A stretch of DNA of 64,000 nucleotides from a virus, in the IMG/VR virus record IMGVR_UViG_3300046519_000190, positions 1 through 64,000 of that record, one strand, 5' to 3'. Below are positions 609-63,361 of the stretch, piece by piece. Both the position numbers and the translations under genes were made by a program. The first letter of the stretch is position 1, and each line of letters starts with the position of its first letter. The notes under the pieces were generated by a model. The model did not search any database. It saw nothing but the letters and a program-made list of their open reading frames with translations, and was not told the DNA's origin.

Positions 609-639
609 ATTCTACAAGCTCCTACAAGGCTCTTGGAGG
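609..639 (-). promoter_or_regulatory. CC-N8-CC-N13 promoter-like element
   Basis: -10 TAGAAT, exact spacing. Confidence 0.75.
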
Positions 640-721
640 CACGTTCTCTGAAAACCAGTATGTTGGGATGGGTAAGCCCCGTTTCTACTCTCCTAGAAGC
701 CGTGGGAGCCCTCTCATGCGT

Positions 722-778
722 GTGTGCCACGAAACCAAGGACCGTCATGTGTGCGTGTGCCTGAGTACCGTGGACCGT
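722..778. repeat. two tandem copies of GTGTGCC-N10-GGACCGT
   Basis: 722-745 and 755-778; third copy at 3269-3292. Confidence 0.7.
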
Positions 779-804
779 AACGTAGGTGAAGCCAGTTGCC
801 TGGC

Positions 805-1062
805 TTACATCTTGGCGCTCTTTGGTTGTGGTTTGCAGCCCACGATGTAGCTGGGATAACCCGGCATGTATGTGGTTGGATCGAAGTCTTTGCTGTTGAT
901 GAACTGGTCACACTCAGTCTTGCTGTTGGGACCACTCCAGCTTTCCACATACTGACTGGTGGGACAGTCACCAACATCATCGCTTTCCATATCTGTACCT
1001 GTGCAGCCTGCGATCAGCAGGTAGGTGATCTTCATGGCTGCTACGGTTGCTGACAGGCTCAT
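805..1062 (-). CDS. hypothetical Cys-containing protein, possibly exported
   Basis: ATGA-coupled to upstream gene; LIAGC lipobox-like segment. Confidence 0.65.
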   Translation of the reverse strand: MSLSATVAAMKITYLLIAGCTGTDMESDDVGDCPTSQYVESWSGPNSKTECDQFINSKDFDPTTYMPGYPSYIVGCKPQPKSAKM

Positions 1063-1388
1063 TGCATTTTCTCCCCGTTACGTTCGATCAATCCGGCACA
1101 GTCGATTTTCATCTGGAGCATGAGGTCTCCCATTGCGTCACTGAGACGGTGCTTAGGCCACACACCACACTCGGTTACGTAGAGAAGACTGGTTCTGATG
1201 TCTTTGCCAATGAACCAGACGTGGTACGAACCGTCATCGTTGCGCAGCAAGACACCGTAGTCACCCTCACAGCTTTTCAGCTCGAACATCTTCTGGTTCA
1301 TGAGCACATGCCCCAGGATTTCGTTGTAGGTGTCCTGGGAAAGCGGACGACCCTCCACTTGGGCGTATACCAGTTCAAGGTTGATCAT
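1059..1388 (-). CDS. hypothetical protein
   Basis: ORF directly downstream of promoter 1439-1469. Confidence 0.75.
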   Translation of the reverse strand: MINLELVYAQVEGRPLSQDTYNEILGHVLMNQKMFELKSCEGDYGVLLRNDDGSYHVWFIGKDIRTSLLYVTECGVWPKHRLSDAMGDLMLQMKIDCAGLIERNGEKMQ

Positions 1389-1438
1389 TGGTTCACTCTC
1401 GGTAACGTCGAGCGTCTGTGTGCGCTCGATCTGTTATC

Positions 1439-1469
1439 AGTGTAAACGCTTGCTTATGGGAGATGTAGG
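1439..1469 (-). promoter_or_regulatory. CC-N8-CC-N13 promoter-like element
   Basis: -10 TACACT, exact spacing; spacer contains GCAAGCGTTT. Confidence 0.75.
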
Positions 1470-1564
1470 TAAACGCTTGCAAGCCGCGGTATTCTATCTA
1501 GTAAACTCTTGGCAAGCGTTTACTAGACAGGTTTCCCAATATCTTATAAACGCTTGCTTATGGC

Positions 1565-1828
1565 TTACAGACCGTCGTAGTCGTAGAGGTCTGTTTCCGG
1601 CTTGTACTGTGGTCTGTACGTACCTTGCTCTACCTGTCTCAGATACTGCTCCCACTCTTCTTGCAGAAGGTGTGCAGGCTTCTTACGAGTCTCAAGCTGC
1701 TTGGCGAATACACGACGCTGGTGGTCTACAGGGGCTTTCGGTGCGTGTACTGGTATCTCATTCCCGTAGATCACAGTATGCCGGTGTGTCTGTGCCTCGA
1801 TGTGGGCTCTGAGTTCTTGCTTGTTCAT
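1565..1828 (-). CDS. hypothetical protein
   Basis: ATGA-coupled ORF. Confidence 0.75.
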   Translation of the reverse strand: MNKQELRAHIEAQTHRHTVIYGNEIPVHAPKAPVDHQRRVFAKQLETRKKPAHLLQEEWEQYLRQVEQGTYRPQYKPETDLYDYDGL

Positions 1829-2408: not shown

Positions 2409-2463
2409 GGTGTTCCCCTTCTCTCGTATTCATGTGCCGAGCTTGCTTGCTCGATCTGTTATA

Positions 2464-2494
2464 AGCATAAACGCTTGCAAATGGCTCGTGGAGG
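2464..2494 (-). promoter_or_regulatory. CC-N8-CC-N13 promoter-like element
   Basis: -10 TATGCT, exact spacing; near-duplicate of the 1424-1453 region. Confidence 0.75.
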
Positions 2495-2558
2495 CACTTT
2501 ATGCTGCTTCTACCCCTTACAAATCCATTCATTTGAGTGGATTCCGGGAGTAGGGAAG

Positions 2559-2920: not shown

Positions 2921-2938
2921 ACCACCAGCTCGTTAACC

Positions 2939-2974: not shown

Positions 2975-3041
2975 GAACACTCCTCAAGCGGAGTGACGAG
3001 AGGGACAGTATGTGCGCCCTGTCCAGGCTGAATGCTGTGCT

Positions 3042-4958: not shown

Positions 4959-4990
4959 AGTATGATCGAGAAAGTCCTGGATTACGCTGG
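4959..4990 (-). promoter_or_regulatory. CC-N8-CC-N14 promoter variant
   Basis: -10 CATACT. Confidence 0.6.
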
Positions 4991-5022
4991 CGTTCAAGAG
5001 GGCTTTCTCAAACGCCAGTGAC

Positions 5023-5927: not shown

Positions 5928-6001
5928 ACTGCTACCTCTCGTTAGGTCTTGTTGTGAAAAGCCGTTCCAACTCTTCCCTTATTAATACTTCAAGCTATCT
6001 A

Positions 6002-6032
6002 ATTATCTCTTGTTCTAAGAGGGAAGACTCGG
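6002..6032 (-). promoter_or_regulatory. CC-N8-CC-N13 promoter-like element
   Basis: -10 GATAAT, exact spacing. Confidence 0.6.
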
Positions 6033-6087
6033 CGCTCAACAAGGTAGTCAACCCGGATGCCTGCTTCGAAATGGGGAAGCTCTATAA

Positions 6088-6395: not shown

Positions 6396-6414
6396 TTGCA
6401 AGCGTTTGCTGTTA

Positions 6415-7111: not shown

Positions 7112-7260
7112 CGCGCTCTCCCCATTTGCTCGCTACCAACTTGAGCGAGCAAAGCGATAGCCTGGCTCAGTTTTTCGTTTCCAGGCTCAGCATGCTTGGT
7201 GCTGGTGCGAATCAGCGTGGCGAGCTGGATCAGCTTGTCGGCTTGTTGCGCGACGGTCAT
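7108..7260 (-). CDS. hypothetical protein
   Basis: Start trimmed to the ATGA overlap (MTVAQQ). Confidence 0.65.
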   Translation of the reverse strand: MTVAQQADKLIQLATLIRTSTKHAEPGNEKLSQAIALLAQVGSEQMGRAR

Positions 7261-7724
7261 GGCCATTTGAGAACAAACTCCGATTTCATAGCTAGAGCTG
7301 GGAAGAAGGCTTTGAGCAAGCGTTCTTCGATATGGTTGCGAATGAACATCGTGGCTTCGAGCAGCGAGTCGAACGACTCGGTGGTGACGAGGCATTCATC
7401 AGGGTCTTCGATGCTGCTGTTTTGCACGTATGCGGTGTAGAACTCTTGATTGATGGTGCTCTTGCCACCTACAGTCATGATGCACGCCGAGTTGTGAACG
7501 ATGCTGTACATGAGGCCGTCTGCCTCGAACTGGCTGATCATGCCTGGCGATTTGGCTTTCTGCTCTTCGTTGAAGCGCTCGTTTTCGAGCATGCGGGCAC
7601 CCATACTGCCGGGCTTGAACTGGCCAAGCTCAGGGTTTGCGGCAACTGCGGCCGCGATTAGGTTGTTACTTGCATCATGATTGCTGGGCATGGTGAATGC
7701 TCTCTCGTAAGTCGCAGCGTTCAT
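7257..7724 (-). CDS. hypothetical protein
   Basis: Downstream of promoter 7740-7770. Confidence 0.75.
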   Translation of the reverse strand: MNAATYERAFTMPSNHDASNNLIAAAVAANPELGQFKPGSMGARMLENERFNEEQKAKSPGMISQFEADGLMYSIVHNSACIMTVGGKSTINQEFYTAYVQNSSIEDPDECLVTTESFDSLLEATMFIRNHIEERLLKAFFPALAMKSEFVLKWP

Positions 7725-7739: not shown

Positions 7740-7770
7740 ATTTTACGAGAGAGCATCTGGGGAGTGTTGG
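7740..7770 (-). promoter_or_regulatory. CC-N8-CC-N13 promoter-like element
   Basis: -10 TAAAAT, exact spacing. Confidence 0.75.
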
Positions 7771-7782
7771 CGCTTGCAAGCG

Positions 7783-8187
7783 TTATTGCGATTCGCCGCG
7801 CAGCAGTTTGTCGAAGGCGCCAGTGCCCTTGAGCATGGCCAACTGCTCGGGAGTTGTGGAGTAGTCAGACTCTTCGATCATCTGGCTCATGATCTTGGCA
7901 AAGGTGAACAACATGAGCTGGGAGATAACCGGCACACCGAACATCGGCTCTTTCTTCAAGTGCTCACCGATGATCCGGGTCTGCTCGATGCCGATTTCGT
8001 GAATCTCTTTGCGAACGGCAGCAGCTTCGACGGTCGTCAGGTTCGTCAGAATCTTGGCCATCAAAGCGTTGGTGTGATTGCTGGCGATCACAGCTTGCTC
8101 GACAACTTGTTGCAGGCTTTCAAGCGTGGGGAAAGCTTGTCTGAAAATTGCCGGCACTTCGGTTACAACGTCGACTACCTTCTTCAT
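7783..8187 (-). CDS. hypothetical protein
   Basis: TGATG-coupled ORF. Confidence 0.75.
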   Translation of the reverse strand: MKKVVDVVTEVPAIFRQAFPTLESLQQVVEQAVIASNHTNALMAKILTNLTTVEAAAVRKEIHEIGIEQTRIIGEHLKKEPMFGVPVISQLMLFTFAKIMSQMIEESDYSTTPEQLAMLKGTGAFDKLLRGESQ

Positions 8188-8762
8188 CAGTGAAAAGTCC
8201 TCGTTACGGCGTGATCAGCGTTCATGCCAGGCACAGGAGGTTCACCCAGTACAGGCTGGCGGAAGTGAGCGGTGAAGCTGGCTTCCCAGGGGAACCGGCC
8301 GTTGCGGTCACAGAATACCCACTGAACGAAGCGAGGTATCTCGACGTTCTCGGGATGGCCGTGCATGTAGTAGTCGAAGGTCTGCCATGCAAGATCAGCA
8401 ACCTGTTCCGTATCCACCTCGATCACCTGCACCGGCAAATTGAAGTAGTCGCTGATGACCGACTGACCCGGCTGTTTCGTGCCAGCAAGCAGTTCAGCGT
8501 GGTACATATTGATGAAGTGCGCTGCCATCTTGTCGTTGATGCCGAACAAGATGACTTCGGGGAAGCCCAGGCTATGAAAGCCAACTGTGTGCACGAAGCT
8601 TGGCATTTCAAAGTCACCACCGATCGACACAATGGCGATACCTTTGTCGTTGATCAGCTCGATGAGGTGCTTGCGGCCCTCTGCCCATGCCTCTTCTTCC
8701 GACATGCCGGCAGCGATAGCGGCACAGTGGGCGCATTCGTGGTCGTGGTTATGATCGCTCAT
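8187..8762 (-). CDS. DUF4262-like protein
   Basis: F.HTVG...GFPEVILFGI ... Q.V..D.NGRFPWE ... QP.L motifs. Confidence 0.7.
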   Translation of the reverse strand: MSDHNHDHECAHCAAIAAGMSEEEAWAEGRKHLIELINDKGIAIVSIGGDFEMPSFVHTVGFHSLGFPEVILFGINDKMAAHFINMYHAELLAGTKQPGQSVISDYFNLPVQVIEVDTEQVADLAWQTFDYYMHGHPENVEIPRFVQWVFCDRNGRFPWEASFTAHFRQPVLGEPPVPGMNADHAVTRTFH

Positions 8763-8795: not shown

Positions 8796-8826
8796 ATTTT
8801 ATCGATATCAGAATGGCAGTGCGTGG
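8796..8826 (-). promoter_or_regulatory. CC-N8-CC-N13 promoter-like element
   Basis: -10 TAAAAT, exact spacing. Confidence 0.75.
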
Positions 8827-8861
8827 CTACCAGCATGGGTGCCAGTAGCACGCAGAGGCTG

Positions 8862-10488: not shown

Positions 10489-10922
10489 GCGAATGCACCA
10501 AAGTCTGCTGGCTTCGGACCCTCTGTCATCGATGGGACAGGTGGATCGTTGCGCATGGCCGTCGCTGCACCGAGTCTCCCACCATCTGGTAGGCTTATCT
10601 CAGCAACAACCGCTGTTGCGTTCTGGAGTGCTTCTGGCAGCTCGGTCATGTCCATTTCAATGGACACTGTGCCGTCCGGGTTTGTCGACTCAATCAGCGT
10701 GACAACGGCTTTAATAGTGTCGTGCTCAAACACCCGACTGACGTTGCCCTTTCTGCCGCTTTTGCTCTTACGCTTCCACAGCTTCTCGTCGACCACATCA
10801 CCCAGATCACCGCCGGTCGTGCTTTCGAACTCCCGTAGATCAGCGCTGCTCACGCCACCCAGCAGGTTGTCCATAAACTGGCAGATCAGCTCTTTGCAGT
10901 CTGCGGTATTCATATCGCTCAT
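10485..10922 (-). CDS. hypothetical protein with C-terminal motif (..PADFGAFA)
   Basis: ATGA-coupled ORF. Confidence 0.8.
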   Translation of the reverse strand: MSDMNTADCKELICQFMDNLLGGVSSADLREFESTTGGDLGDVVDEKLWKRKSKSGRKGNVSRVFEHDTIKAVVTLIESTNPDGTVSIEMDMTELPEALQNATAVVAEISLPDGGRLGAATAMRNDPPVPSMTEGPKPADFGAFA

Positions 10923-11314
10923 TCCCAGGCTCCGTATCCGTCTGGTTTGCTGGCGCGCTCGACTGCACGCGCTTCGTCGTCTCTATGTTGATAGTTTTCG
11001 CGAGGGTGTGCGTGGCGACCAGATGGCTTTATATGCCAGCCAACGTCTGTGATGTTGCCCTGGTAGAAGGTGACACACATAACCCCGCGTCGATGGAACG
11101 TCAGGTCAGTTCGGTCTTTCTGAATCTTGAAGCGCCTGGTGTTCTTGACTCTGACGAACCAGCGATTGAGATAGCCGGTGGCCGGGTTGTCAGTCGCCAC
11201 TTGGAGCCAATGCTCGTCGAGCGTGCCCCAGTCATCGTCGTTCGTGCAAAGGTGGTAGTAAGCCACGATTGCACGTTGCGCCTTAGCTATCAGCTTGCTG
11301 GCGAGAGTGGACAT
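10919..11314 (-). CDS. hypothetical protein with C-terminal motif (..PDGYGAWE)
   Basis: TAATG-coupled ORF. Confidence 0.8.
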   Translation of the reverse strand: MSTLASKLIAKAQRAIVAYYHLCTNDDDWGTLDEHWLQVATDNPATGYLNRWFVRVKNTRRFKIQKDRTDLTFHRRGVMCVTFYQGNITDVGWHIKPSGRHAHPRENYQHRDDEARAVERASKPDGYGAWE

Positions 11315-12782: not shown

Positions 12783-13295
12783 TTATACGGCCGGGCTGGC
12801 TTTGTGAATCAGTTCCACTTCATCCAGGTAGTCGAGCCAGATACAGAAGTACCGGGCAAGCTGCTCGCTGCGAGGGTGTGTGGCTTTGTGATACAGGTTG
12901 AAATCTTTCTCATTCTGGAGCTTGTCTGCTGCCAGCATGTGAATGAGGTCTTGCGAGAGCCAGCCTACGTGTTCGTTCAGACTGTCTACCGTGTAGTGAT
13001 CGGTTTCAGGCCGGCACAGGTAGCTGTTTGCGTGCTTGGCATACATCATGGCCAACTGTGCCGTAGCACGTCTTATGCCCGGAGTCTTCCAAATCATTTC
13101 TTTGGCGACATCGCTGTCAGACTGAGCCAGCGGGTGCAGGCAGAATGCTTGGATTGCCCGCTCACTCGCACCCATTGCTACAAGCAGGTCGATACCCTCG
13201 TTGATGTGATTGATCAACGGCAGACCGCTACGCTTTGCACGCTGATCGCCGTACCAGCGCTTGATCAGGGCGTATTCAGCGGACGAGCGCTTCAT
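12783..13295 (-). CDS. HD-like protein resembling SpoT/Mesh1 hydrolase domains (HD replaced by HP)
   Basis: KRSGLPLINH..., CLHP, ADKLQN versus RKSGEPYxxH..., LLHD, ADKLHN. Confidence 0.55.
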   Translation of the reverse strand: MKRSSAEYALIKRWYGDQRAKRSGLPLINHINEGIDLLVAMGASERAIQAFCLHPLAQSDSDVAKEMIWKTPGIRRATAQLAMMYAKHANSYLCRPETDHYTVDSLNEHVGWLSQDLIHMLAADKLQNEKDFNLYHKATHPRSEQLARYFCIWLDYLDEVELIHKASPAV

Positions 13296-13477
13296 GCTAC
13301 TGCCGACTGCTTGATCAGGCTTTCACGGCCTGCGACGTAGCCCTGGGCGAAGGTGTTCAGATCAGCGTGGTTGTAGTAACGGCCGGTCTTGTTGAAGTTT
13401 TTGTAGCCCGCTTGAAGTGCAATGCGTTCGAACTGTTCAAGCTCGGCAGCAGTGCGGAAAAGCTCTTGTAAGCTCAT
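13292..13477 (-). CDS. hypothetical protein
   Basis: First ORF after promoter 13533-13565. Confidence 0.7.
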   Translation of the reverse strand: MSLQELFRTAAELEQFERIALQAGYKNFNKTGRYYNHADLNTFAQGYVAGRESLIKQSAVA

Positions 13478-13532: not shown

Positions 13533-13565
13533 ATTATACGAGTTCAGAGAGTAGGTGAGACTGGG
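13533..13565 (-). promoter_or_regulatory. CC-N8-CC-N15 promoter variant
   Basis: -10 TATAAT. Confidence 0.6.
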
Positions 13566-13587
13566 CTTCGAGCGAAGCCCAGGACTT

Positions 13588-14687: not shown

Positions 14688-14906
14688 TCAGTCACCGAAG
14701 TGTTCGTTGATGCAGTCACACTTGCCAATGCGCAGAGCTTCATCGACCTCTTTCAGCTTTGCACTGGCATCCAAACGGCTTTTTGCCTTGCCCAGATACT
14801 GCTCGACGAGGAACGAGATTGCTCCCAGCTCGTCGTCGAAGCCTTTCAAGTTCTTAACCAGATCCACCGGAACATCAGCGTTCGGGCACACAGCGATAGA
14901 AGGCAT
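14688..14906 (-). CDS. hypothetical protein
   Basis: AGGA RBS; after promoter 14933-14963. Confidence 0.7.
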   Translation of the reverse strand: MPSIAVCPNADVPVDLVKNLKGFDDELGAISFLVEQYLGKAKSRLDASAKLKEVDEALRIGKCDCINEHFGD

Positions 14907-14932: not shown

Positions 14933-14963
14933 ATTATAAGCGTTCGAGATTGGCGCGTGGAGG
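14933..14963 (-). promoter_or_regulatory. CC-N8-CC-N13 promoter-like element
   Basis: -10 TATAAT, exact spacing; overlaps the 3' end of the upstream gene. Confidence 0.7.
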
Positions 14964-15686
14964 CTCAAGCTCTTCTTGCGCGTTCGACCGATCTTCAACA
15001 AAGGGTTCGACGTTGCGCTTGTACTGGTACTGCTGACCCTCGCTGAGCTTCCACTCAACCTCATGACCGCAGGCGCCATTGCTGCACAGCTTCTTGTCTT
15101 CGCTGTGCATGGGGATCATGTCGCAGCCGCACTTGATGCAGACCTTCGTACCACGATGCCGGAGCAGGAACTTCTCAGCCTCCTTCCATGCCTGGCCATC
15201 GTCCGCTTTGAGCATGTCTTCAAGGCGATCAAGTGCGTCTGTCAGATGCCCCATCGTCACGACATGGGCTTCGCTTGCACGGAACGAACGGTCGTTGGCT
15301 TGCTCAAGGTCTGCACGCAGAGCCATTTCACGGTCAACCGCGTCGTGGACATCTTTGACGGTCTGACAGAAGAGCGGGCTGTCTTTGCTGAGGCGCTGTT
15401 GCTCGGCCGAATACCGGGTGTTGCACATCGCAGCGACACCACAAGCAACCAAACGCTGGCGCTCGATTTCGAGTTCAGCAGCCAGCTTCTTCTCGTTGGC
15501 TTCTGCGGTTTCACACCAGGCCGCAATCGTGGTGACTTTCTTGGTCAGACGCTCGATTTCAGCGGTCTTCTGTTTGTTGGCCTGGTAGATACGATTGAAG
15601 TTCTCAATCGAGGTCTTGGTTGTTTCGTTGGCCATAGCCAACGTATCGCGGAGTTTCTGCATTTCTGTGAATGGCCAAATGTTCAT
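14934..15686 (-). CDS. coiled-coil protein with C-terminal zinc ribbon
   Basis: Heptad-rich N-terminus; CIKCG..CSNGAC. Confidence 0.75.
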   Translation of the reverse strand: MNIWPFTEMQKLRDTLAMANETTKTSIENFNRIYQANKQKTAEIERLTKKVTTIAAWCETAEANEKKLAAELEIERQRLVACGVAAMCNTRYSAEQQRLSKDSPLFCQTVKDVHDAVDREMALRADLEQANDRSFRASEAHVVTMGHLTDALDRLEDMLKADDGQAWKEAEKFLLRHRGTKVCIKCGCDMIPMHSEDKKLCSNGACGHEVEWKLSEGQQYQYKRNVEPFVEDRSNAQEELEPPRANLERL

Positions 15687-16313: not shown

Positions 16314-16985
16314 TTAACCCTCCAGCTCAGCGTAGGTATTCGCGCCTTTCTTCGCGAACTTGAAGCGAGCCAGGATACCCTTGCCGCGTGGCACTTCTTC
16401 CTGGTTCTCGTACTCTTGCTTCTCGGCGTTCCAGTCACCCTCAGACAGATAGGTGCCGGTCAGCGTGACGCTCGGGCAACGGCCGTCGATGATGCCCTGG
16501 ATCAGCCCGCTGATGCCACTTGGGCCGAATTCGATGATCTGGCCATTCTCAGCTTCGAACTGCATGGTCACAGAGCTGCGACCGCGTGTGTAGCCAATGA
16601 AGCGCAACCCGGATTCGAAGATAGGCGTGTGATCCAGAGCTTCGATCTGGCTAATCAACCTTTTCTTGAGCCACTGACTGTGGGCGTGCTTGCGCTTGTT
16701 CGAGGCTTCGTACTCGGCCCACTGGTCGATCTGTTCCTGAGTCAACTGCGGAATGTGAGAAGGGCGGCATGTTCCGTGAAAGCCGGGCCACGCTACGTCA
16801 ACACCAAGATCAGGCTCGTCGCCCAGAGTGTCGCGTGCTTCTTGAGCGGCCTTGTTCACAGCTTCGTGACCGCCGTTGATTGGCCACTCACCATCCCAGC
16901 CGACGTAGTAGTGACCAGTCACGGTGTCTTTCATCAAGCACCAGGCTTTTGGAGCTTTACCCTTTGCAGTCCCGACGATCTTCAT
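16314..16985 (-). CDS. hypothetical protein
   Basis: GAGG RBS; after promoter 17018-17048. Confidence 0.8.
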   Translation of the reverse strand: MKIVGTAKGKAPKAWCLMKDTVTGHYYVGWDGEWPINGGHEAVNKAAQEARDTLGDEPDLGVDVAWPGFHGTCRPSHIPQLTQEQIDQWAEYEASNKRKHAHSQWLKKRLISQIEALDHTPIFESGLRFIGYTRGRSSVTMQFEAENGQIIEFGPSGISGLIQGIIDGRCPSVTLTGTYLSEGDWNAEKQEYENQEEVPRGKGILARFKFAKKGANTYAELEG

Positions 16986-17017: not shown

Positions 17018-17048
17018 AGTCTATAGAGCGCACTGTGGGTTTGTGTGG
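17018..17048 (-). promoter_or_regulatory. CC-N8-CC-N13 promoter-like element with -10 in a palindrome loop
   Basis: -10 TAGACT; AGTGCGCTC/GAGCGCACT inverted repeat. Confidence 0.75.
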
Positions 17049-17057
17049 GCGCCAGTG

Positions 17058-18724: not shown

Positions 18725-18755
18725 ATTTTACAGACTGATGATTGGCATCGTGTGG
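18725..18755 (-). promoter_or_regulatory. CC-N8-CC-N13 promoter-like element
   Basis: -10 TAAAAT, exact spacing. Confidence 0.75.
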
Positions 18756-18794
18756 CGTTCGAAGCTCTATAACGCGCTGTGAGCTTCGATCTTT

Positions 18795-20839: not shown

Positions 20840-20870
20840 ATATTACAGAGCAAATCCAGGCAGCATCTGG
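20840..20870 (-). promoter_or_regulatory. CC-N8-CC-N13 promoter-like element
   Basis: -10 TAATAT, exact spacing. Confidence 0.75.
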
Positions 20871-20887
20871 CGAAGTCCTGGGTTCCT

Positions 20888-22346: not shown

Positions 22347-22377
22347 ACTATGCTCTGATTTCGCAGGCATAGTGTGG
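22347..22377 (-). promoter_or_regulatory. CC-N8-CC-N13 promoter-like element within an inverted repeat
   Basis: -10 CATAGT; CACACTATGC/GCATAGTGTG. Confidence 0.7.
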
Positions 22378-22380
22378 CGT

Positions 22381-23416: not shown

Positions 23417-23449
23417 ATTATCGCAGCTATTCTTTGTGGATGATCTGGG
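23417..23449 (-). promoter_or_regulatory. CC-N8-CC-N15 promoter variant
   Basis: -10 GATAAT inside a CTGCGA/TCGCAG palindrome. Confidence 0.45.
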
Positions 23450-23876
23450 GCTCAGCAGGTGTTTCCGCTTTCTCCTCAACGACCAGCTTGCCATCTTTCT
23501 TGACGATCTGCGGACGAGCCTTGATCAGCTCAAGCTGTTCGTTCATCGTCGGGGTTGGCTGATCTTTGATGCCGCACAGGGCCATCGTCAGATTCGGATG
23601 ATCTGTCATTGGCGTGCGAACTTGGAGCAGGAAGTCGAACCCTTGTGCCTGGCAGATCAAGGTTACTTCCTTGAGAAGCGGCTCGATCAGCTCGTTGTAT
23701 ACCGGATGACTGTCGGTGTACACGCGACCGCCCTGGTCATGAACATCACAGCCTGCTTGCAGAGCATCGAGACGGAACTTCGCAGCTTGCTTGGCCAGCT
23801 TTGCAGCCTGACGTCGAGCGAGGGTACGTTTCGCCTTCGATTCGTGACGGCGGACGTTTTTCTCAAGTGTTTTCAT
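23427..23876 (-). CDS. hypothetical protein
   Basis: ORF in operon. Confidence 0.75.
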   Translation of the reverse strand: MKTLEKNVRRHESKAKRTLARRQAAKLAKQAAKFRLDALQAGCDVHDQGGRVYTDSHPVYNELIEPLLKEVTLICQAQGFDFLLQVRTPMTDHPNLTMALCGIKDQPTPTMNEQLELIKARPQIVKKDGKLVVEEKAETPAEPQIIHKE

Positions 23877-26323: not shown

Positions 26324-26354
26324 AGTCTGTCAGATTTACACAGGGCTTAGATGG
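26324..26354 (-). promoter_or_regulatory. CC-N8-CC-N13 promoter-like element overlapping a terminator-like hairpin
   Basis: -10 CAGACT; hairpin 26302-26330 with T-tract. Confidence 0.6.
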
Positions 26355-26955
26355 GGTACGTGCGAACGTGCTCTAAAGCCCGCTCAACCGCTTTGACGCG
26401 CTCGATCATGTCAATCCCATGCAGACGATGCGGGGTAACGCCCACGTCGCTCATAGCCTTTGTCATGAGCATGTCGAGGTGCACGCGATAAATAAGGCTG
26501 CTTGCAGCACGGACTTTGCCAGTCGGATCAGCAACCATCGGTAGAGCGATTGGAACATGGACGATTGCATCGAAAGCCTGTGCTGCGAGGTTGCACTGGA
26601 GAATGTAGCCGGTGATACGAGTGCTCAGCTCGTCGCTGATTTCGTCGTAGCCACTGACTTCTGCCAGGGTGTAGGCAATCAGGTCGAAGGGAGTGCGATC
26701 GGTGATGATAGTAGCGCTCGGGCCGGCTTTCAGAAGACCCTCTTCCCACTGATCACACAGAACCTCCAGGACTTTCTCCTGAATCTCCATGCGCTGCTCC
26801 AGCGACATGCGTACCTTCGGGTCCAGTTTGAAGCTCTTGTAAACGTCGCTGACGGACGTTTTCACGAAATGAGCACGGTTATGCTCATTCACGAAAGCCT
26901 CGCACAGAGAGGTTTTGCCGCTGCCGTGAGTACCTGCTAAGCCCAGGAAGACCAT
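26347..26955 (-). CDS. P-loop nucleotide kinase/NTPase (AAA_28-like)
   Basis: GTHGSGKT Walker A; ITDRTPFD. Confidence 0.8.
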   Translation of the reverse strand: MVFLGLAGTHGSGKTSLCEAFVNEHNRAHFVKTSVSDVYKSFKLDPKVRMSLEQRMEIQEKVLEVLCDQWEEGLLKAGPSATIITDRTPFDLIAYTLAEVSGYDEISDELSTRITGYILQCNLAAQAFDAIVHVPIALPMVADPTGKVRAASSLIYRVHLDMLMTKAMSDVGVTPHRLHGIDMIERVKAVERALEHVRTYPI

Positions 26956-30022: not shown

Positions 30023-30053
30023 ACTATGTCACGCAGAACGAGGGATTGTGTGG
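30023..30053 (-). promoter_or_regulatory. CC-N8-CC-N13 promoter-like element
   Basis: -10 CATAGT, exact spacing. Confidence 0.7.
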
Positions 30054-30242
30054 GCTTGTGTAAGGGCAGCTTTGGAGCCGCTAAATTTTCGGCGGCGGGA
30101 TTACGAACTGTGAGCCATTCGACCAACTCCAACTCCAGTCTGAAATACCCGGCGATGAGCACGTCGAGTCAGAAGCCGGACATCCTTCACAATCAAGGCT
30201 GCAACCACGAAGGTCAGAGCCAGGTTCAGCATGGTAAGCGTT

Positions 30243-33657: not shown

Positions 33658-33688
33658 ATAGTAGCGCTCTAAAGTAGGGGTTAGATGG
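33658..33688 (-). promoter_or_regulatory. CC-N8-CC-N13 promoter-like element with -10 at a palindrome centre
   Basis: -10 TACTAT; TTAGAGCGCTA/TAGCGCTCTAA. Confidence 0.75.
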
Positions 33689-33719
33689 GAGTCAGCTCTT
33701 CCCTGAGCTGCTACCTATG

Positions 33720-41854: not shown

Positions 41855-41885
41855 ATTCTGCGCGATTGCGCATGGGCTTGCGTGG
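41855..41885 (-). promoter_or_regulatory. CC-N8-CC-N13 promoter-like element
   Basis: -10 CAGAAT, exact spacing. Confidence 0.7.
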
Positions 41886-41913
41886 GGTCTGCTAGCTACC
41901 CGAAGGTAGAATA

Positions 41914-47623: not shown

Positions 47624-47655
47624 ATTAAAGCGTACTGACGCTGGGGCTTCTATGG
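47624..47655 (-). promoter_or_regulatory. CC-phased promoter-like element with -10 in a palindrome loop
   Basis: -10 TTTAAT; GCGTCAG.ACGCT/AGCGT.CTGACGC. Confidence 0.65.
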
Positions 47656-47656
47656 G

Positions 47657-51051: not shown

Positions 51052-51594
51052 TCAACTCCTGATGATCAATTTCTCATCGGCGATCCTGGCAATACCAAGA
51101 CCTGTCACGACCGACACCCCAATACTTGCCTGCGATGCTGCTACAGACGGGCTGTGCCCTAGTTTGTCTTTCAGTTCCAGCATGTAGGTGTAGCGATCAA
51201 CTGGCCCTTTCAAGAGCAGGTCGAACAAAACAGAAACGGCGAGAGGCTTCTGATCCCGGATTGGGTTCACACCCTCGATCAACATCTTGCGAAAGTTGAC
51301 CTTCGTCCTGAGTAGGGAAGCTGCTACGCGCTGCGCGTTCTCAGGAATCATACTGATTAGTTTCTGGGCAGTCTCAGGCAAGTCAGCGTCGAATCTGGGT
51401 TGCTCTGCGAGCTTCTCAGAGCCTTTGTGAGACATCTTGAGGATTGCATCTACGCTGATGAGGGGTCGAAGCTCCTCGATGCGCTGGCGAGCTGCTGTGC
51501 GGCACTCTGACGAGTATTCGCATGCCTGGCATACGATGGACTTGACGCTGTAGGTAATGGCGTTGCCAAAGCACCCGGGTTTGTCGAATTGCAT
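51052..51594 (-). CDS. Cys-motif protein (PGCFG..CxxC..C)
   Basis: AGGAG RBS; start trimmed to MQFDK. Confidence 0.75.
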   Translation of the reverse strand: MQFDKPGCFGNAITYSVKSIVCQACEYSSECRTAARQRIEELRPLISVDAILKMSHKGSEKLAEQPRFDADLPETAQKLISMIPENAQRVAASLLRTKVNFRKMLIEGVNPIRDQKPLAVSVLFDLLLKGPVDRYTYMLELKDKLGHSPSVAASQASIGVSVVTGLGIARIADEKLIIRS

Positions 51595-51618
51595 CCACCG
51601 AACTCCTACGTTGAAGAC

Positions 51619-51646
51619 AAAAAAGCAGGTCACGAAGACCTGCTTT
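51619..51646 (-). terminator. Rho-independent terminator
   Basis: AAAGCAGGTC/GACCTGCTTT stem plus T-tract. Confidence 0.8.
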
Positions 51647-51663
51647 CTCAATTGCTGCCGATG

Positions 51664-52948: not shown

Positions 52949-52980
52949 ATTTTGTACGCTCACTGACGGGCGTTCAATGG
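52949..52980 (-). promoter_or_regulatory. CC-phased promoter-like element with -10 in a palindrome loop
   Basis: -10 CAAAAT; TCAGTGAGCG/CGCTCACTGA. Confidence 0.7.
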
Positions 52981-52983
52981 GGT

Positions 52984-55104: not shown

Positions 55105-55135
55105 AGTATGCGCGAAAGAAACTGGGGACACGCGG
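55105..55135 (-). promoter_or_regulatory. CC-N8-CC-N13 promoter-like element
   Basis: -10 CATACT, exact spacing. Confidence 0.7.
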
Positions 55136-55149
55136 TCCCCAGCAGGTAG

Positions 55150-57443: not shown

Positions 57444-57474
57444 AGTGTACAAGCGCGCTTTAGGGGATGTGCGG
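57444..57474 (-). promoter_or_regulatory. CC-N8-CC-N13 promoter-like element
   Basis: -10 TACACT flanked by CGCTTG/CAAGCG. Confidence 0.75.
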
Positions 57475-57482
57475 GCTTGCTG

Positions 57483-58262
57483 TCAGCCGAAAGCGCCCCA
57501 GCCGCTGCCGTAGACCTCTTCACGGTCGATCTTCGGTTCTGGTTCGCGAACACCATGCGGGACACTTGCAACGTCTATAAACGTGCCGTCAACCGAGTGC
57601 ATAATGCCTTCGACCACATCGGCGGTTTGCGGACTCGCGGTTTCACTGCGAGCTTGAGCGAGCAAGGCGCCTACACTGTGACCCTTGCCGTTGATGTTGC
57701 TCAAGAAGTTGCTTGTCGGCAGAAGGTTAGCAAGAGCTTTGCCCATGATGCGGCCGATCTTGTCATGACCACCCTCAACTCCATATGTCCCGGCCTGTAT
57801 GTCTGTCATAGCAAGAATGGGCAGAGCTGCGTTTTTCGTACCTTTTGAAAGTTCGACAACGAACTCATGACCAACTTGGAGAGGCACTTCACGGCCAATG
57901 TAGTTCTCAACCGTGTAGCCTTTCGAGACTGCTTTGGACTTGACAACCGAGTACCACTCTCTTTCGCTGACGCGCTTGCATTGCGCCTGGCCTTTTACCT
58001 GATCATCTTTGCCCCACCAGGTAAGGGAGAAGCCGTCAACACCAGTAGGCGTTGTCGCGATGAACATCGATCGCCACAGCTTTCCTTCCGGGTGGCGGCA
58101 CTCGATCATCGAAGCTGGGTAGGCTGAGCTTGAGCAATCGATCAGAGAGTGGACGGTTGGGTATTCATCTGGGCCGGTGTGATGTCCAGAAAGTTGCCAT
58201 CTGACTGTCTCTGAAATCAGCTTGATTCCACAATCTGCTGGGCTGTAAGGGGTGATAAGCAT
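57483..58262 (-). CDS. protein with WGR-like segment and C-terminal motif (..GWGAFG)
   Basis: WWGK..GQ..K..SK...KGY resembles a WGR domain; start uncertain. Confidence 0.7.
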   Translation of the reverse strand: MLITPYSPADCGIKLISETVRWQLSGHHTGPDEYPTVHSLIDCSSSAYPASMIECRHPEGKLWRSMFIATTPTGVDGFSLTWWGKDDQVKGQAQCKRVSEREWYSVVKSKAVSKGYTVENYIGREVPLQVGHEFVVELSKGTKNAALPILAMTDIQAGTYGVEGGHDKIGRIMGKALANLLPTSNFLSNINGKGHSVGALLAQARSETASPQTADVVEGIMHSVDGTFIDVASVPHGVREPEPKIDREEVYGSGWGAFG

Positions 58263-58287: not shown

Positions 58288-59394
58288 CTATAGACTGAAT
58301 TTTGACATGATCGATACGGCATAGAGCGGGGTTAACTCTTTTGCCTGTACGAACGCCTGGCGAACGACTTCGGTATCTACTTCGTTCGGGTCTTTGTCGT
58401 TCGGGAGAATGGCCAGCTTGACCTTGAACCCATATGTGCGCAGCTTCACACCCGTCTTGACAGCGTTGAGGATTGCGCTGGGTGATCCGTCCCACATCAT
58501 GGTGATTTCTTGCAGGCCGGCTGCTTTCATCCGTTTCAGATCGGAGAGCTGGTCGTTTTCTGCGCCGGATTCAGCCATCGACAGGTGCATACCGAATGTT
58601 CCGCAGATACCCACATCCCTGAACGTGATGTCTTCGTCGAAAGCCTTCTTGATTGCAGCCACGTCGAACGCGCCCTCGCCCAGTACGACCTCTTTCAAGC
58701 CCAGTGCGTTGTGTGCGTTGTAGATGAACCGCCCTGCACCCGCGAGTCCTGGTGGGAACAGGTACTTCTGGAAAGAATTAGGCTCAGTGCTTCGACCCTG
58801 GAACGTTACAAGCTTCCCGTCGATGCCATATACAGGAATGATGACTCGGTTTTCCCAGTTCTGGGTCTTCTCTTCACCACCGAGAGTGTAAGAGTAGACC
58901 CCGTGCTTGCTGTATCGCCACCCGAAATACTCGGCAAGCTCAATACCAAATCCACGAGCCGACAGGTACTTGAGAGTCTTTCCGTTAATGGGCAGGGCGT
59001 AGCTGTCCGGGATGTTGATTTCATCGGGGTTCTCGTCTGCTGGGCGTGGAGCGCGTTTGCGGGTAGAAGACCAGCCCAGGGTCTTTGCGTAGCGCTTGAG
59101 GGCGTTGATCGTCTCACGGTGAGATTTGTCGTTGAGGTGATGGATGAAGCTGTACTTGTTGAAGCCGGGTTCGCCTGAGCATGACCCATGAAAGCAGCTA
59201 CCCAAGCCTGTATCAGCGTTCAGGTAGACCTTCCAGTCGCGACCCCCACAGCGAGGGCACTCCTTTAGGTTGAGCTGAGTACCGGATCGCCCGCGAGTGA
59301 CCCGGTAGTCGATGCTCTCCACGCTCAGGAAATCCTCCATGTCGACCATATCAATCAGGTCTTGAATCTCGGAGTCATCCTTCGCAGTGGCCAT
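58288..59394 (-). CDS. DNA primase (zinc finger plus TOPRIM)
   Basis: CPRC..C...C zinc domain; RVIIP, FQGR, KY, EG.FD, WDG, DPN. Confidence 0.88.
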   Translation of the reverse strand: MATAKDDSEIQDLIDMVDMEDFLSVESIDYRVTRGRSGTQLNLKECPRCGGRDWKVYLNADTGLGSCFHGSCSGEPGFNKYSFIHHLNDKSHRETINALKRYAKTLGWSSTRKRAPRPADENPDEINIPDSYALPINGKTLKYLSARGFGIELAEYFGWRYSKHGVYSYTLGGEEKTQNWENRVIIPVYGIDGKLVTFQGRSTEPNSFQKYLFPPGLAGAGRFIYNAHNALGLKEVVLGEGAFDVAAIKKAFDEDITFRDVGICGTFGMHLSMAESGAENDQLSDLKRMKAAGLQEITMMWDGSPSAILNAVKTGVKLRTYGFKVKLAILPNDKDPNEVDTEVVRQAFVQAKELTPLYAVSIMSKFSL

Positions 59395-59395: not shown

Positions 59396-59605
59396 TTACT
59401 TGCTCAGCATTTCAGGGTGGTCGTGAAGAGTCGCCAGCATCAGGTTCATCTGGCTCATGTCCGCGATGACTTCTTCGTTCGGACCCTGCTCGGCGATCTT
59501 CTCGTCGAGGTACTTCACTGCGGCCGATTCTTCACCGAAAGCCAGACGAGCGATTTCGCGCCAGTTGCCCAAAGTCGAATCATCACCACTCCACAATTTC
59601 TTCAT
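59396..59605 (-). CDS. hypothetical protein
   Basis: GAGGT RBS. Confidence 0.75.
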   Translation of the reverse strand: MKKLWSGDDSTLGNWREIARLAFGEESAAVKYLDEKIAEQGPNEEVIADMSQMNLMLATLHDHPEMLSK

Positions 59606-59633: not shown

Positions 59634-59664
59634 AGCATAACAGCCCGAAAGCGGGCTGTTATGG
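59634..59664 (-). promoter_or_regulatory. CC-N8-CC-N13 promoter-like element coincident with a hairpin
   Basis: -10 TATGCT; CATAACAGCCCG/CGGGCTGTTATG inverted repeat. Confidence 0.65.
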
Positions 59665-59680
59665 GTGTCGCAAAGGTAGA

Positions 59681-60982: not shown

Positions 60983-61281
60983 TCGTCGTCTCCATCATCA
61001 GGTTTGGTTGCGAACATCGAGTTGTATTCGTCGATCACCTTCTTGGCGGTCTTGTATGCGAAGGCTTCGTCCATCGCGACAAAGCTGTCTTCGCCCTTTA
61101 CCCAGGCTTCGTCTTCGTCCTTGCCGAAGTTGGACAGCTTGACTGCACAGACGCCCAAGTTTTTAGGCTTGAAGGTGATCTTGATTTCAGGGCCGTAGGT
61201 GTTCGGCTCTTCCGAAGCATCGATGGTTAGAAGCACCTGGCCGATGTCTTCGAACTGGAACAGTTTGGCGAACTGTTTCAT
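60979..61281 (-). CDS. hypothetical protein
   Basis: ATGA-coupled; FAKLF..EDIGQVL. Confidence 0.75.
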   Translation of the reverse strand: MKQFAKLFQFEDIGQVLLTIDASEEPNTYGPEIKITFKPKNLGVCAVKLSNFGKDEDEAWVKGEDSFVAMDEAFAYKTAKKVIDEYNSMFATKPDDGDDE

Positions 61282-61511
61282 TTGGCTTTATCCCCGCTCA
61301 TTGCCGCACGAATGGCACATGCAGCGGTGTCACCCTGGCTAGAGTAAGCACATTTGGCGTCGATAGGGTTTGCACCAGCCTGAATCGCCTGAGCGATCTT
61401 TGCATTGCCATCCATTGAGCAGCTAACCGGTGCCCATGCGATGAACACTGCGGCTAGCGCAACGACGATCCAAGCTACGATGTTGCGAAGTTCTTCCCAG
61501 TCCATATTCAT
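61278..61511 (-). CDS. small membrane-anchored protein
   Basis: TM segment; G.NPI.A.CA. Confidence 0.7.
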   Translation of the reverse strand: MNMDWEELRNIVAWIVVALAAVFIAWAPVSCSMDGNAKIAQAIQAGANPIDAKCAYSSQGDTAACAIRAAMSGDKAK

Positions 61512-61529
61512 TCTCGTTTGATGTGTAAA

Positions 61530-61578
61530 GAAAAAGACTCAGACGCGAGTATGCACGTCTGAGTCTGGTGTGTTGCGG
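61530..61578 (-). promoter_or_regulatory. terminator hairpin with the -10 of a CC-N8-CC-N13 promoter in its loop
   Basis: AGACTCAGACG/CGTCTGAGTCT stem plus T-tract; -10 CATACT at 61548-61553. Confidence 0.7.
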
Positions 61579-61585
61579 GCTACGA

Positions 61586-63058
61586 TCAGGTGATTTCGAG
61601 AATCCCTGTCATGAAGCGCATCTTGCTGAGCTCCTGCGTAATTTTCAGGGTGAACTCGCCGGCCTGGTTACGAGAGGCTGCAAAGTAGATTCGGGCTTCG
61701 CCTTTGGTCTTCTCTTCGTCCGTGCGGTTGATGGTCAACACCAAGTCAGCGATACGGATTTTGTTGAAGTCTTCTGCGGCGTGTTCTGCTTTGGCCACGT
61801 CTGCTGTGAAGCCAGCTCGGTTGGTCTGTGTCGCTGTCAGAACTGCGGCGTTCTCTTCGTGTGCGATTGCCCGCAGACCCAGCCAAACCTGCTTCGACTC
61901 GTTGATGTCGTTACCGGATTTGATTTCAGCGGCCATGATGTCGGCGTAGTCGACCACGATCATGTCGAAGATGATGCCTTCGGCACGGTAGAATTCAATC
62001 ACCTTGCGCAGATCAGCGCAGGTCATTTGACCCGACGGATACTCGACGACCTTGAGGTGGCCAGGCTTGCGAAGGCCAGCACGGTCTTTAACGCCCTTCT
62101 CGACGTCATTGCCCCGTGAACTGAGGTCGCTCATGTCGATGCCCGCCACGTTGGCGTCCATACGTTCCATGATGATCTTGGCGGCTACTTCGAGGGTCAC
62201 GTACAGAACGTTGAAGCCTTTCTGAGAGCCCGCGAGAGCCCAGTGAAGCAGACCCGTTGACTTACCCTTCTTGGCACCACCCATGACGACGGACAGTTCT
62301 TTACGGCCCCATCCGTGGTGGTACAACATCTTGTCGAGTTTCGGTAGACCCGAGGTGATACCGTCCTTCGTGATCAGGCCGGCTTCAACATCACGACGAT
62401 ACTGTGTCCGGGTTTCGATGTCGTTCCAGTAGTCGTTGTCTTCGACCACAGCCTGCGCGCCCGTTGCGAACGCCTTCTGCATGATCTTCTGAGCCTTCTC
62501 ATGCTCGCCTTTCTCGACGAGTGGAATGGTCATCATGTATGCGGCTGTGATTGCTTGCTTCTTGGCGAACTCTGCGACCTTATCTACAGCGTAGTCACGG
62601 GCCGGGAGAGCTCCAGTCAGGATTTTCTTGAGCGCTGTGACCATATCCGGGACGTCATCGTCACGAATCGCCTTCTCAGCTTTCGCATCCTTGATCAGTT
62701 CAGCCCATTCACTGCGCTCGGGCAGACGACGGTACTTCTCATGATAGGTCGTTGTGATGTGAACCAGCGCCGACAGTGAGCGCTCTTCGAAGTATTCAGG
62801 TCGTACCAGGCCGTCTACGCGACGATAGAAAGCTTCGTCACGGCAGATCAGCGCCGCGATCTTCTGCTGAAACTCACCTTCGAACTGAAAGGCTTCTGAG
62901 CCTTCTGGGAGAGTAGGGAGCGGGGTGATGCGCTTTGCTGCCTGCATCACGGTTTCGAGTTCGTCATCCAGGTCGAGGTCTTCTTCCGGTGCGACGATAC
63001 CCATCTGTCTGGCCATCTGCTCCGCCAGACTATCCTTGATTTCGGATTCGTCAGACAT
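61586..63058 (-). CDS. dnaB: replicative DNA helicase (DnaB / T4 gp41-like)
   Basis: GI.SG...LD, G.AKKGKS, VTLE, VVDYAD, TATQTNR, D....I.R. Confidence 0.9.
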   Translation of the reverse strand: MSDESEIKDSLAEQMARQMGIVAPEEDLDLDDELETVMQAAKRITPLPTLPEGSEAFQFEGEFQQKIAALICRDEAFYRRVDGLVRPEYFEERSLSALVHITTTYHEKYRRLPERSEWAELIKDAKAEKAIRDDDVPDMVTALKKILTGALPARDYAVDKVAEFAKKQAITAAYMMTIPLVEKGEHEKAQKIMQKAFATGAQAVVEDNDYWNDIETRTQYRRDVEAGLITKDGITSGLPKLDKMLYHHGWGRKELSVVMGGAKKGKSTGLLHWALAGSQKGFNVLYVTLEVAAKIIMERMDANVAGIDMSDLSSRGNDVEKGVKDRAGLRKPGHLKVVEYPSGQMTCADLRKVIEFYRAEGIIFDMIVVDYADIMAAEIKSGNDINESKQVWLGLRAIAHEENAAVLTATQTNRAGFTADVAKAEHAAEDFNKIRIADLVLTINRTDEEKTKGEARIYFAASRNQAGEFTLKITQELSKMRFMTGILEIT

Positions 63059-63296
63059 TGCAGGCTCCAAAGCACTTGATGGCCGACTTGAAGATTGTGC
63101 GGTACTGACCATCGCTGTGACGGGTGATGGTGATGGTGTAGTTGTCGAACTGCGTTACCTGACCGCGTAGCTGCGTGCCGTCGAGCATGTCGAATACAGC
63201 CAAGCTGTTCTCACGAATCAAGGTCTTGAGGATCGTCTGATGCCCGTTCTTGAAATCCTGGGGCTTCTTGTTGGAGTGGGTGTTCGGAGAGTTCAT
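63051..63296 (-). CDS. hfq: Hfq-like Sm-fold RNA-binding protein
   Basis: HQTILKTL..., DG.QLRGQV.QFD.YTI (Sm1) and IFKSAI (Sm2, compare VYKHAI); AGGA RBS. Confidence 0.8.
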   Translation of the reverse strand: MNSPNTHSNKKPQDFKNGHQTILKTLIRENSLAVFDMLDGTQLRGQVTQFDNYTITITRHSDGQYRTIFKSAIKCFGACNV

Positions 63297-63339
63297 GGTT
63301 GATCCTGCTAAGGGTGAGTGTTTGAGTGTTGCGATTGCG

Positions 63340-63361
63340 AGTATACGCGCAGCGAGAGCGG
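63340..63361 (-). promoter_or_regulatory. partial CC-N14 promoter upstream of the hfq-like gene
   Basis: -10 TATACT; only the proximal CC is in phase. Confidence 0.5.

Follow-up and report, generated by a model that had tools for sequence, protein, structure and literature searches.

A phased CC-box element without a -35 hexamer at probable promoters of a Nickievirus-like phage

An unusual promoter-like element recurs on the minus strand of the virus record IMGVR_UViG_3300046519_000190, the genome of a Nickievirus-like phage. Our analysis centered on a window comprising bases 1-64000 of this 110,851-bp record, which has short terminal repeats. In this element, a hexamer resembling the -10 box of sigma-70 promoters is preceded by 13 nucleotides (nt), a CC pair, 8 nt and a second CC pair, and no recognizable -35 box is present. 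From their sequence patterns, these elements are very probably promoters, and as such they would be the principal class driving the phage's non-structural genes (those for replication and nucleotide metabolism, and many small genes), with approximately 25-30 members. The explanation that we favor, to which we assign a probability of roughly 0.55, is that the host sigma-70 RNA polymerase reads the -10 hexamer and a phage DNA-binding adaptor or activator reads the direct repeat SCCW-N6-SCCW (S is G or C; W is A or T) in place of the -35 element.

A regular-expression scan of the window for CC-N8-CC-N13-YANNNT (Y is C or T) returned 27 matches on the minus strand and 2 on the plus strand, where the expectation from 200 dinucleotide-preserving shuffles of the window is 4.36 +/- 2.10, with a maximum of 12. 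Matches are also more common in intergenic than in coding DNA: 18 of the 27 reside in the 11.6% of bases left non-coding by the crude codon-usage gene calls made in this analysis, which is a 15-fold rate (binomial p = 2e-11). The first-pass annotation, made from the sequence alone, had listed 19 sites with this exact spacing, and each of them carries the minus-strand pattern when its coordinate is taken as the 3' base of the hexamer (609, for example, denotes hexamer 614..609). Its shifted sites likewise exhibit the spacings claimed for them, namely N8/N14 at 4959, N8/N15 at 13533 and 23417, and N9/N13 at 47624 and 52949. At the two sites described as partial, 3007 and 63340, the hexamer is present and the CC pair is missing. 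The proposed hexamer YANNNT fits most sites, with 6002 falling outside because its hexamer is GATAAT. Furthermore, two exact sites had been overlooked (hexamers 58304-58299 and 10990-10985), both located in the 3'-terminal part of the upstream gene and kept in relatives.

Across the grid of possible spacings, matches reach their maximum at (8,13), the adjacent cells being accounted for by CCC runs, and CC is the sole dinucleotide among the 16 that is enriched in the window. Two tests that are independent of the regular expression, one anchored on the hexamer and the other on the CC repeat, yield the same architecture. When all 59 non-coding sense-strand TANNNT sequences serve as the anchor, CC peaks at gaps 13-15 and 23-24. 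When SCC-N7-SCCW repeats serve as the anchor, YANNNT is found exactly 12 nt further on at 13 of the 22 non-coding repeats versus 2 of the 17 coding ones, and anchoring on nothing but the CC repeat recovers A2, A4 and T6 in the hexamer. Among 20 sites, position 4 is A in 16, and position 1 is T in 13 and C in 6. Because it has A2 and T6, the hexamer qualifies as a TATAAT-like sigma-70 -10 element.

Columns on which no selection was imposed are biased too, with S preceding each CC, A or C predominating after the first CC, and W following the second. Because of these biased flanks, we describe the element as a direct repeat, SCCW-N6-SCCW, for which the original wording of two CC steps is too narrow. 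This repeat occurs in two sub-classes. The GCC...GCC(W) sub-class is accompanied by near-consensus hexamers (TAAAAT, TATAAT, TAGAAT) and is found mostly at 0.6-23 kb, and the CCC...CCC sub-class is accompanied by weaker hexamers (CATACT, CAGACT, TACACT) and is found mostly at 26-62 kb. If the hexamer is set at -12 to -7, the CC pairs fall at -37/-36 and -27/-26, and the repeat spans -38 to -25. The sites in the window are as follows, where "probable promoter" denotes a CC-box element predicted to be a promoter.

61548..61579, minus strand: probable promoter, CATACT, CCC class; before 61278-61511 and its downstream operon; -10 in the loop of an 11-bp hairpin that is followed by a T-run
59634..59665, minus strand: probable promoter, TATGCT; before 59396-59605 and the primase gene
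58299..58330, minus strand: probable promoter, CAAAAT; inside the 3' end of the primase gene, before 57483-58262; kept in five relatives
57444..57475, minus strand: probable promoter, TACACT; -10 in the loop of a 6-8-bp hairpin
55105..55136, minus strand: probable promoter, CATACT; before the cobT-like gene
52949..52981, minus strand: probable promoter, N9/N13, CAAAAT; before the cobS-like gene; -10 within the loop of a 10-bp hairpin; the stem varies in sequence among phages
47624..47656, minus strand: probable promoter, N9/N13, TTTAAT; before 46280-47584
41855..41887, minus strand: probable promoter, CAGAAT; before the phosphoesterase and SMC-like genes
33658..33689, minus strand: probable promoter, TACTAT; before 32678-33619; -10 in the loop of a 9-bp hairpin with a compensatory change in relatives
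30023..30054, minus strand: probable promoter, CATAGT
26324..26356, minus strand: CC-box element of less certain promoter status; a terminator-like hairpin with a T-run has the hexamer, CAGACT, as its 5' arm
23417..23450, minus strand: variant site, N8/N15, GATAAT; before 22948-23388
22347..22378, minus strand: probable promoter, GCC class, CATAGT; before 21977-22285
20840..20871, minus strand: probable promoter, TAATAT; before 19950-20783
18725..18756, minus strand: probable promoter, TAAAAT; before 18419-18700
17018..17049, minus strand: probable promoter, TAGACT; before 16314-16985; -10 in the loop of a 9-bp hairpin
14933..14964, minus strand: probable promoter, TATAAT; before 14688-14906
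13533..13566, minus strand: variant site, N8/N15, TATAAT; before 13292-13477
10985..11016, minus strand: exact site, CAACAT; inside gene 10919-11314, 62 nt before the start at 10922; kept in Nican01, nickie, hairong and the uncultured G001
8796..8827, minus strand: probable promoter, TAAAAT; before 8187-8762
7740..7771, minus strand: probable promoter, TAAAAT; before 7257-7724; palindrome CGCTTGCAAGCG immediately upstream
6002..6033, minus strand: probable promoter, GATAAT; overlaps one arm of an inverted repeat, CTTCCCT...AGGGAAG
4959..4991, minus strand: variant site, N8/N14, CATACT
2464..2495, minus strand: probable promoter, TATGCT; its spacer is a putative operator half-site, TTGCAAGCGTT
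1439..1470, minus strand: probable promoter, TACACT; its spacer is a putative operator half-site, AAGCAAGCGTT
609..640, minus strand: probable promoter, TAGAAT; before 293-565

We consider promoter function very probable because the elements are on the right strand, are intergenic, precede start codons at suitable distances (26-62 nt from the end of the hexamer at most sites), and are kept while their spacers drift. The strand is the one that carries nearly all genes. The record exhibits ~84% DNA identity to the Pseudomonas syringae phages ZY21, phiK7B1, Nican01 and nickie, and 76% to hairong, all of which belong to the genus Nickievirus. When orthologous intergenic regions of hairong, nickie and Nican01 are aligned with those of this phage, both CC pairs and the hexamer are retained whereas the spacers diverge, in line with the earlier remark that spacers are not conserved, and C-runs permit a spacing flexibility of +/-1. 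Counts of sense and antisense matches are 30/4 in the genome under study, 30/9 in G001, 29/10 in nickie, 24/10 in Nican01, 34/9 in hairong and 23/4 in G005; hence a sense excess is evident in every Nickievirus genome examined (three isolates and two uncultured), and reversed-pattern controls give 3-8.

The window contains genes for replication and nucleotide metabolism (helicase, primase, ligase, cobT/cobS-like, dnaE, recA, ribonucleotide reductase and thymidylate synthase) and is rich in small genes; the structural genes reside at 64-98 kb, beyond its end. Of 30 matches in the whole genome, 29 are located within 0.6-72 kb and one is located at 108.4 kb. The latter is the only non-coding match beyond the window, and the structural block at 64-98 kb has none.

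At the aligned sites, the region from -35 to -30 is ACAC-like rather than TTGACA-like, and so the claim that the -35 box is missing and a sigma-70-like -10 is kept is borne out. No extended -10 TG is present to offset this loss. Canonical promoters of the form TTGACA-N16-18-TATAAT, allowing up to 2 mismatches, are entirely absent from the whole 110.8-kb genome. The sole -35-containing promoter found, near 110.2 kb, is TTGCAC-N16-TAATAT, at the head of a 1,072-nt stretch (genome 109136-110208) that has no CC or GG on either strand. The next longest such stretch is 158 nt. The 1,072-nt stretch contains a gene for a predicted winged-helix protein of 184 amino acids (aa) that is discussed below. 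Nican01 repeats both the TTGCAC-type promoter and a matching 1,083-nt CC/GG-free stretch. We found no paper on Nickievirus promoters or start sites; a published start-site study of Pseudomonas phages deals with other phages (PMC10914365).

The promoter features described above, taken with the failure to detect a phage sigma factor or polymerase, make a trans-acting reader of two phased boxes the most economical explanation. In the mechanism we propose, the housekeeping sigma-70 polymerase would recognize the hexamer, (T/C)AnA(A/C)T. Two protomers of the adaptor, arranged side by side or in tandem, would bind the direct repeat, whose CC pairs share one helical face, and the adaptor would contact sigma region 4 or some other part of the polymerase, thereby replacing the -35 contact.

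The first-pass annotation saw no sigma factor or RNA polymerase gene in the window, and for sigma this now extends to the whole genome. A six-frame search of the genome with Sigma70_r2 (PF04542) gave no match at E <= 10, PF08281 gave only a sub-threshold helix-turn-helix (HTH) match in open reading frame (ORF) 25213-25698, and the sigma factor carried by relatives has no homologue in this genome by tblastn, profile search or hmmsearch --max. On the outcome of the PF04542, PF08281 and relatives'-sigma-profile searches, we rejected a recognizable phage sigma as the reader. No T7-type RNA polymerase was matched in the whole genome, and neither MotA (PF09114) nor AsiA (PF09010) was matched; these negatives are weak because the controls did not score, those for the polymerase being silent and those for MotA and AsiA lacking these families. 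Phage_CII (PF05269) has no match in six frames at E <= 10. Among approximately 43 proteins scanned against Pfam, 10 of which were also compared with PHROGs, no regulator family was found, and the scan returned one gp32-like single-stranded DNA-binding protein and weak sub-threshold matches to HNH and NUDIX families. WYL-type and SARP (OmpR-type plus BTA) domains were likewise seen in none of these ~43 proteins, out of ~150 in the phage.

Some relatives of Nickievirus do carry a sigma factor of their own, and these provide a view of how the two boxes may have arisen. Rhizobium phage B1VFA, which shares its replication module with Nickievirus, encodes a sigma (Pfam Sigma70_r2, 30 bits) between cobS-like and zinc-ribbon genes. 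The uncultured genomes G002 and G003 are nearer to Nickievirus (dnaE 61-64% identical) and carry the same sigma at the same locus, between cobS and the zinc-ribbon gene and beside dnaE (G002:106795-107421 and G003:87977-88603). The equivalent junction in the phage examined here, 51595-51663, is a 69-nt gap with only a terminator-like hairpin. Sigma is also missing from nickie, Nican01, hairong, G001 and G005, in a comparison where the positive controls G002, G003 and B1VFA score.

The sigma-bearing relatives have genomes homologous to this one, with genes in the same order, and their promoters resemble half of the element. Their proximal SCC is located 13, sometimes 14, bp before a -10-like hexamer, and there is no clear -35 in G002 and G003. 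CC frequency in these two genomes peaks at gap 13 (0.12 and 0.15 versus ~0.04) and exhibits no peak at gap 23. B1VFA promoters approximate tTGaCGc-n-TCCC-N13/14-(G)CTATAAg, which has the CC-to-hexamer spacing seen here and a -35 and -10 like those of the host but lacks a distal CC. Thus the hexamer varies by host, from TAnAAT-like in the Pseudomonas phages to (G)CTATAAg in B1VFA, while the CC-N13 spacing is kept. The double-box motif is not enriched in G002, G003 or B1VFA (13/15, 14/8 and 11/6 sense/antisense matches, respectively), nor in G006-G010, which are distant carriers of the 184-aa protein family. The six genomes that are enriched for it all lack a phage sigma. To judge from these comparisons, the proximal box, which the sigma-bearing relatives share, looks ancestral. 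The distal box is enriched only where sigma is absent. This association is a correlation and not proof of a connection, because it probably reflects a single evolutionary event.

CII of phage lambda is a phage activator that works with the host sigma-70 polymerase, and the MotA/AsiA system enables the lytic phage T4 to re-aim the same host enzyme at many promoters. The CII promoters (PRE, PI and PaQ) share with the CC-box element a 4-bp direct repeat whose 10-bp period straddles -35, and lack a usable -35. PRE has the same register, with its proximal box ending exactly 13 bp ahead of the -10 hexamer, and TTGC-N6-TTGC-N13-AAGTAT can be aligned with (S)CC(W)-N6-(S)CC(W)-N12-hexamer. We confirmed the PRE sequence in lambdoid records, which annotate it as a promoter within cII; its -10 is numbered -12 to -7 (PMC2613000). 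However, the boxes are TTGC in lambda and SCCW here, a TGn extended -10 and a Phage_CII homologue are lacking here, and CII serves three lysogeny promoters whereas approximately 25-30 CC-box elements would drive the bulk of the lytic genes.

T4 middle promoters, to which the element had originally been likened, keep the sigma-70 -10 and have a phage box near -30 instead of the -35 (PMC8635444). The analogy holds to the extent that the -10 is kept and the -35 is supplanted by a phage-specific box at many promoters. It fails in that a T4 middle promoter has one MotA box of 9 bp and not a phased pair, the sequences are unrelated (the MotA box consensus (a/t)(a/t)(a/t)TGCTT(t/c)A at -30 has no counterpart in the aligned sites), and no MotA or AsiA homologue was found, although a relative at the level of fold may exist. 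In geometry, lambda CII is the closer system. Among cellular systems, mycobacterial PafBC adapts sigma to promoters with a canonical -10, no -35 and a -26 element (PMC8635444), and SARP/AfsR proteins of Streptomyces bind the two direct repeats of the afs box side by side, with sigma region 4 positioned on the activator (PMC10936776). These are hybrid promoters of the same kind, in which an activator element between -19 and -40 is combined with a canonical -10 and no -35, and the activator fits between sigma region 4 and a box at -23 to -40. In contrast to the element described here, the SARP repeat has a period of 11 bp and ends 8 bp from the -10, and both systems are cellular actinobacterial regulators, of the WYL and OmpR-BTA families. 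By analogy, the CC class might work as the CII, MotA/AsiA, PafBC and SARP systems do; we file it outside all of them because the geometry is similar but no CII, MotA or AsiA homologue was found.

Which protein might read the boxes? The HTH protein of ORF 25213-25698 (minus strand), put forward in the first-pass annotation, was rejected as a general reader. It has only sub-threshold matches to sigma region 4 and GerE-like families, it is absent from the motif-bearing genomes G001 (which is complete) and G005, and in hairong, although the motif is present, only 32 N-terminal residues match. This ORF is itself located downstream of a CC-box element. Two other conserved proteins, each with a predicted winged helix, are more promising as candidates. 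The first is a 184-aa protein, encoded by the earliest early gene (genome 109557-110111, beyond the window), which is preceded by TTGCAC-N16-TAATAT as its apparent promoter. The model of this protein (predicted local distance difference test, pLDDT, 95.8) comprises a long helical hairpin and a winged helix, and matches MarR-like proteins (Foldseek probability up to 0.99, but E > 0.1) and TubR (Z 7.6). The putative recognition helix is nearly invariant in 26 family members, and the protein is found in all Nickievirus genomes tested. The other candidate is encoded within the window.

51052..51594, minus strand: candidate reader with a zinc ribbon, in which four Cys are invariant, and a winged helix at the C terminus

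This second protein (model pLDDT 91.3; Z about 8 for the C-terminal winged helix) is kept in every relative that has the proximal CC box, and its gene adjoins the sigma gene in the sigma-bearing relatives. A MotA-like fold was considered for it and rejected, since the Foldseek match to the MotA N-terminal domain is weak (E 0.26) and MotA is absent from the top 50 VIA-align rows.

Some of the sites overlap potential hairpins. A perfect stem of at least 5 bp encloses the hexamer at 6 of 27 sites versus 3% of control hexamers (p = 2e-4), and four of these stems are 9-11 bp long. At 17018, 33658, 52949, 57444 and 61548, the stems of 6-11 bp exhibit compensatory changes between phages. For example, stems upstream of the helicase operon are GACG/CGTC, AGCA/TGCT or AGCG/CGCT in different phages, and those upstream of cobS are GTGAGCG or GTGCGCTC. 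The arms GTGCGCTC and GAGCGCAC are reused at three orthologous sites, and T-runs follow two hairpins, at 61548 and 26324. Because only about one quarter of the sites have a hairpin, we rejected the idea that it belongs to the motif in general. Most simply, the hairpins would be terminators, or stem-loops at the 3' end of the upstream transcript, packed over the next promoter; it is also possible that extrusion of a DNA hairpin helps to open the -10.

These stems, with their compensatory changes and two T-runs, could be taken to mean that the unit is not mainly a promoter, and is instead an RNA or DNA structural signal (terminator, processing site or 3' stabilizer) whose hexamer is no more than loop sequence, or a binding array for a protein with a non-transcriptional role. 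We regard this as very improbable, given that three quarters of the sites have no hairpin, the CC boxes are located outside the stems, hexamers within loops still keep the sigma-70 invariants A2 and T6, and the distances to start codons fit 5' untranslated regions. A different challenge comes from the sigma-bearing relatives. If Nickievirus encodes a sigma-like protein or polymerase-specificity subunit too diverged to be recognized, it could read both CC boxes and the hexamer, and the class would then be one of phage-sigma promoters. G002, G003 and B1VFA encode a real sigma, and because these relatives keep SCC-N13-hexamer, a sigma could read the proximal box. Nickievirus might also have swapped its sigma for a non-orthologous factor, and many of its small proteins have no detectable family. 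Such a factor nevertheless strikes us as unlikely, both because the sigma region 2 and relatives'-sigma searches found nothing and because the hexamer shifts with the host (Pseudomonas versus Rhizobium), as expected if host sigma does the reading.

Perhaps no phage protein is needed, and the host polymerase, alone or with a host factor, uses the phased CC pairs through DNA shape, bending or an alternative upstream contact. The early-looking small genes at 0.6-23 kb belong to the CC-box class and have near-consensus -10 hexamers (TATAAT, TAAAAT, TAGAAT), and the genome has scarcely any promoters of other types, and hence something has to be transcribed before phage proteins are available. However, one complete early unit does have a -35-containing promoter and could supply the factor. 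The missing extended -10 TG leaves the lost -35 without compensation, and the restriction of distal-box enrichment to genomes without a phage sigma points to adaptation on the side of the phage. In addition, we know of no host sigma with this specificity. On balance, we doubt that the host acts without a phage factor.

Several observations also weigh against the combination of host sigma-70 and a phage adaptor that we favor. Promoters of the GCC class, with their near-consensus -10, might fire without any factor. The two candidate proteins are linked to the boxes only by co-occurrence, and each link has a difficulty: B1VFA has the proximal box yet no homologue of the 184-aa protein, this protein might instead bind an abundant palindrome, AAACGCTTGCAAGCGTTT, that overlaps its own promoter, and the gene at 51052-51594 is located behind a CC-box element, which creates a bootstrapping problem. 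Moreover, the Pfam scan covered ~43 of ~150 phage proteins, and PHROGs 10 of these ~43.

A more ambitious scenario joins these observations, and we offer it as a speculation that we consider unlikely. Nickievirus may have lost an ancestral sigma and rewired its early and middle programme onto host sigma-70 by means of a second CC box, with a tandem-binding winged-helix adaptor replacing the -35 contact. The best candidate for this adaptor would be the first-expressed gene product, encoded in the 1,072-nt CC/GG-free unit. CC would then be a managed regulatory word of the lineage, maybe linked to a predicted DNA-modification module next to terminase.

If host sigma-70 and a phage adaptor do share the reading of these elements, they would provide a new case of a lytic phage that encodes neither a polymerase nor a sigma and yet redirects the host RNA polymerase. 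This case would join T4 MotA/AsiA, lambda CII, PafBC and SARP, with an unusually minimal code of two CC steps one helical turn apart, and genomes that retain the phage sigma and a single box are available for natural comparison. The element would also serve as a promoter model for annotating or engineering Nickievirus phages, which are studied for biocontrol of P. syringae on kiwifruit, cherry and apricot. The analysis contributes the match to the register of lambda CII, grounds for rejecting the HTH candidate, a pair of winged-helix candidates, the covariation of the hairpins and the correlation with sigma loss.

Other sequence features were also encountered. The palindrome AAACGCTTGCAAGCGTTT and its half-sites occur in ~18 copies, nearly all intergenic and clustered near both genome ends. 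Copies in the window are at 1471-1481, 2469-2479, 6397-6407 and 7772-7781, with half-sites at 1448-1552, and copies beyond it are at 91811-91821, 101103, 105218-105228, 108435-108445 and 110218-110445. This element overlaps the -35 of early TTGCAC promoters and fills the spacer of the CC-box elements at 1439, 2464 and 108435, and it looks like an operator for a dimeric regulator. In G002 and G003, a different palindrome, TAACTAAGCGCTTAGTTA, is found at equivalent places.

Just past the end of the window, at 64178-64240, a large inverted repeat, CCAACTCTTCCCT ... AGGGAAGAGTTGG, flanks an AT-rich center of ~36 nt that contains TATAAATA. A half copy is found at 5967-5978, a similar arrangement at ~93.98-94.03 kb, and similar sequences in hairong and G001; this repeat is a possible origin, late promoter or bidirectional control region. 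Elsewhere, ORF 44527-45369, annotated as "hypothetical" in relatives, matches the T4 gp32-like family of single-stranded DNA-binding proteins (PF08804, E = 3e-26).

Finally, CGAGA(G) occurs 8-25 nt before 14 called starts, compared with ~3.3 expected, and often within (C)AAACAGCGAGA. Its positions are 577, 1401, 2426, 5941, 8776, 12775, 16997, 26291, 33632, 37250, 40750 and 47597 in the window, and 108380 and 110126 in the remainder of the genome. CGAGA(G) might serve the first genes of operons as an unusual motif for ribosome binding or as a leader motif.

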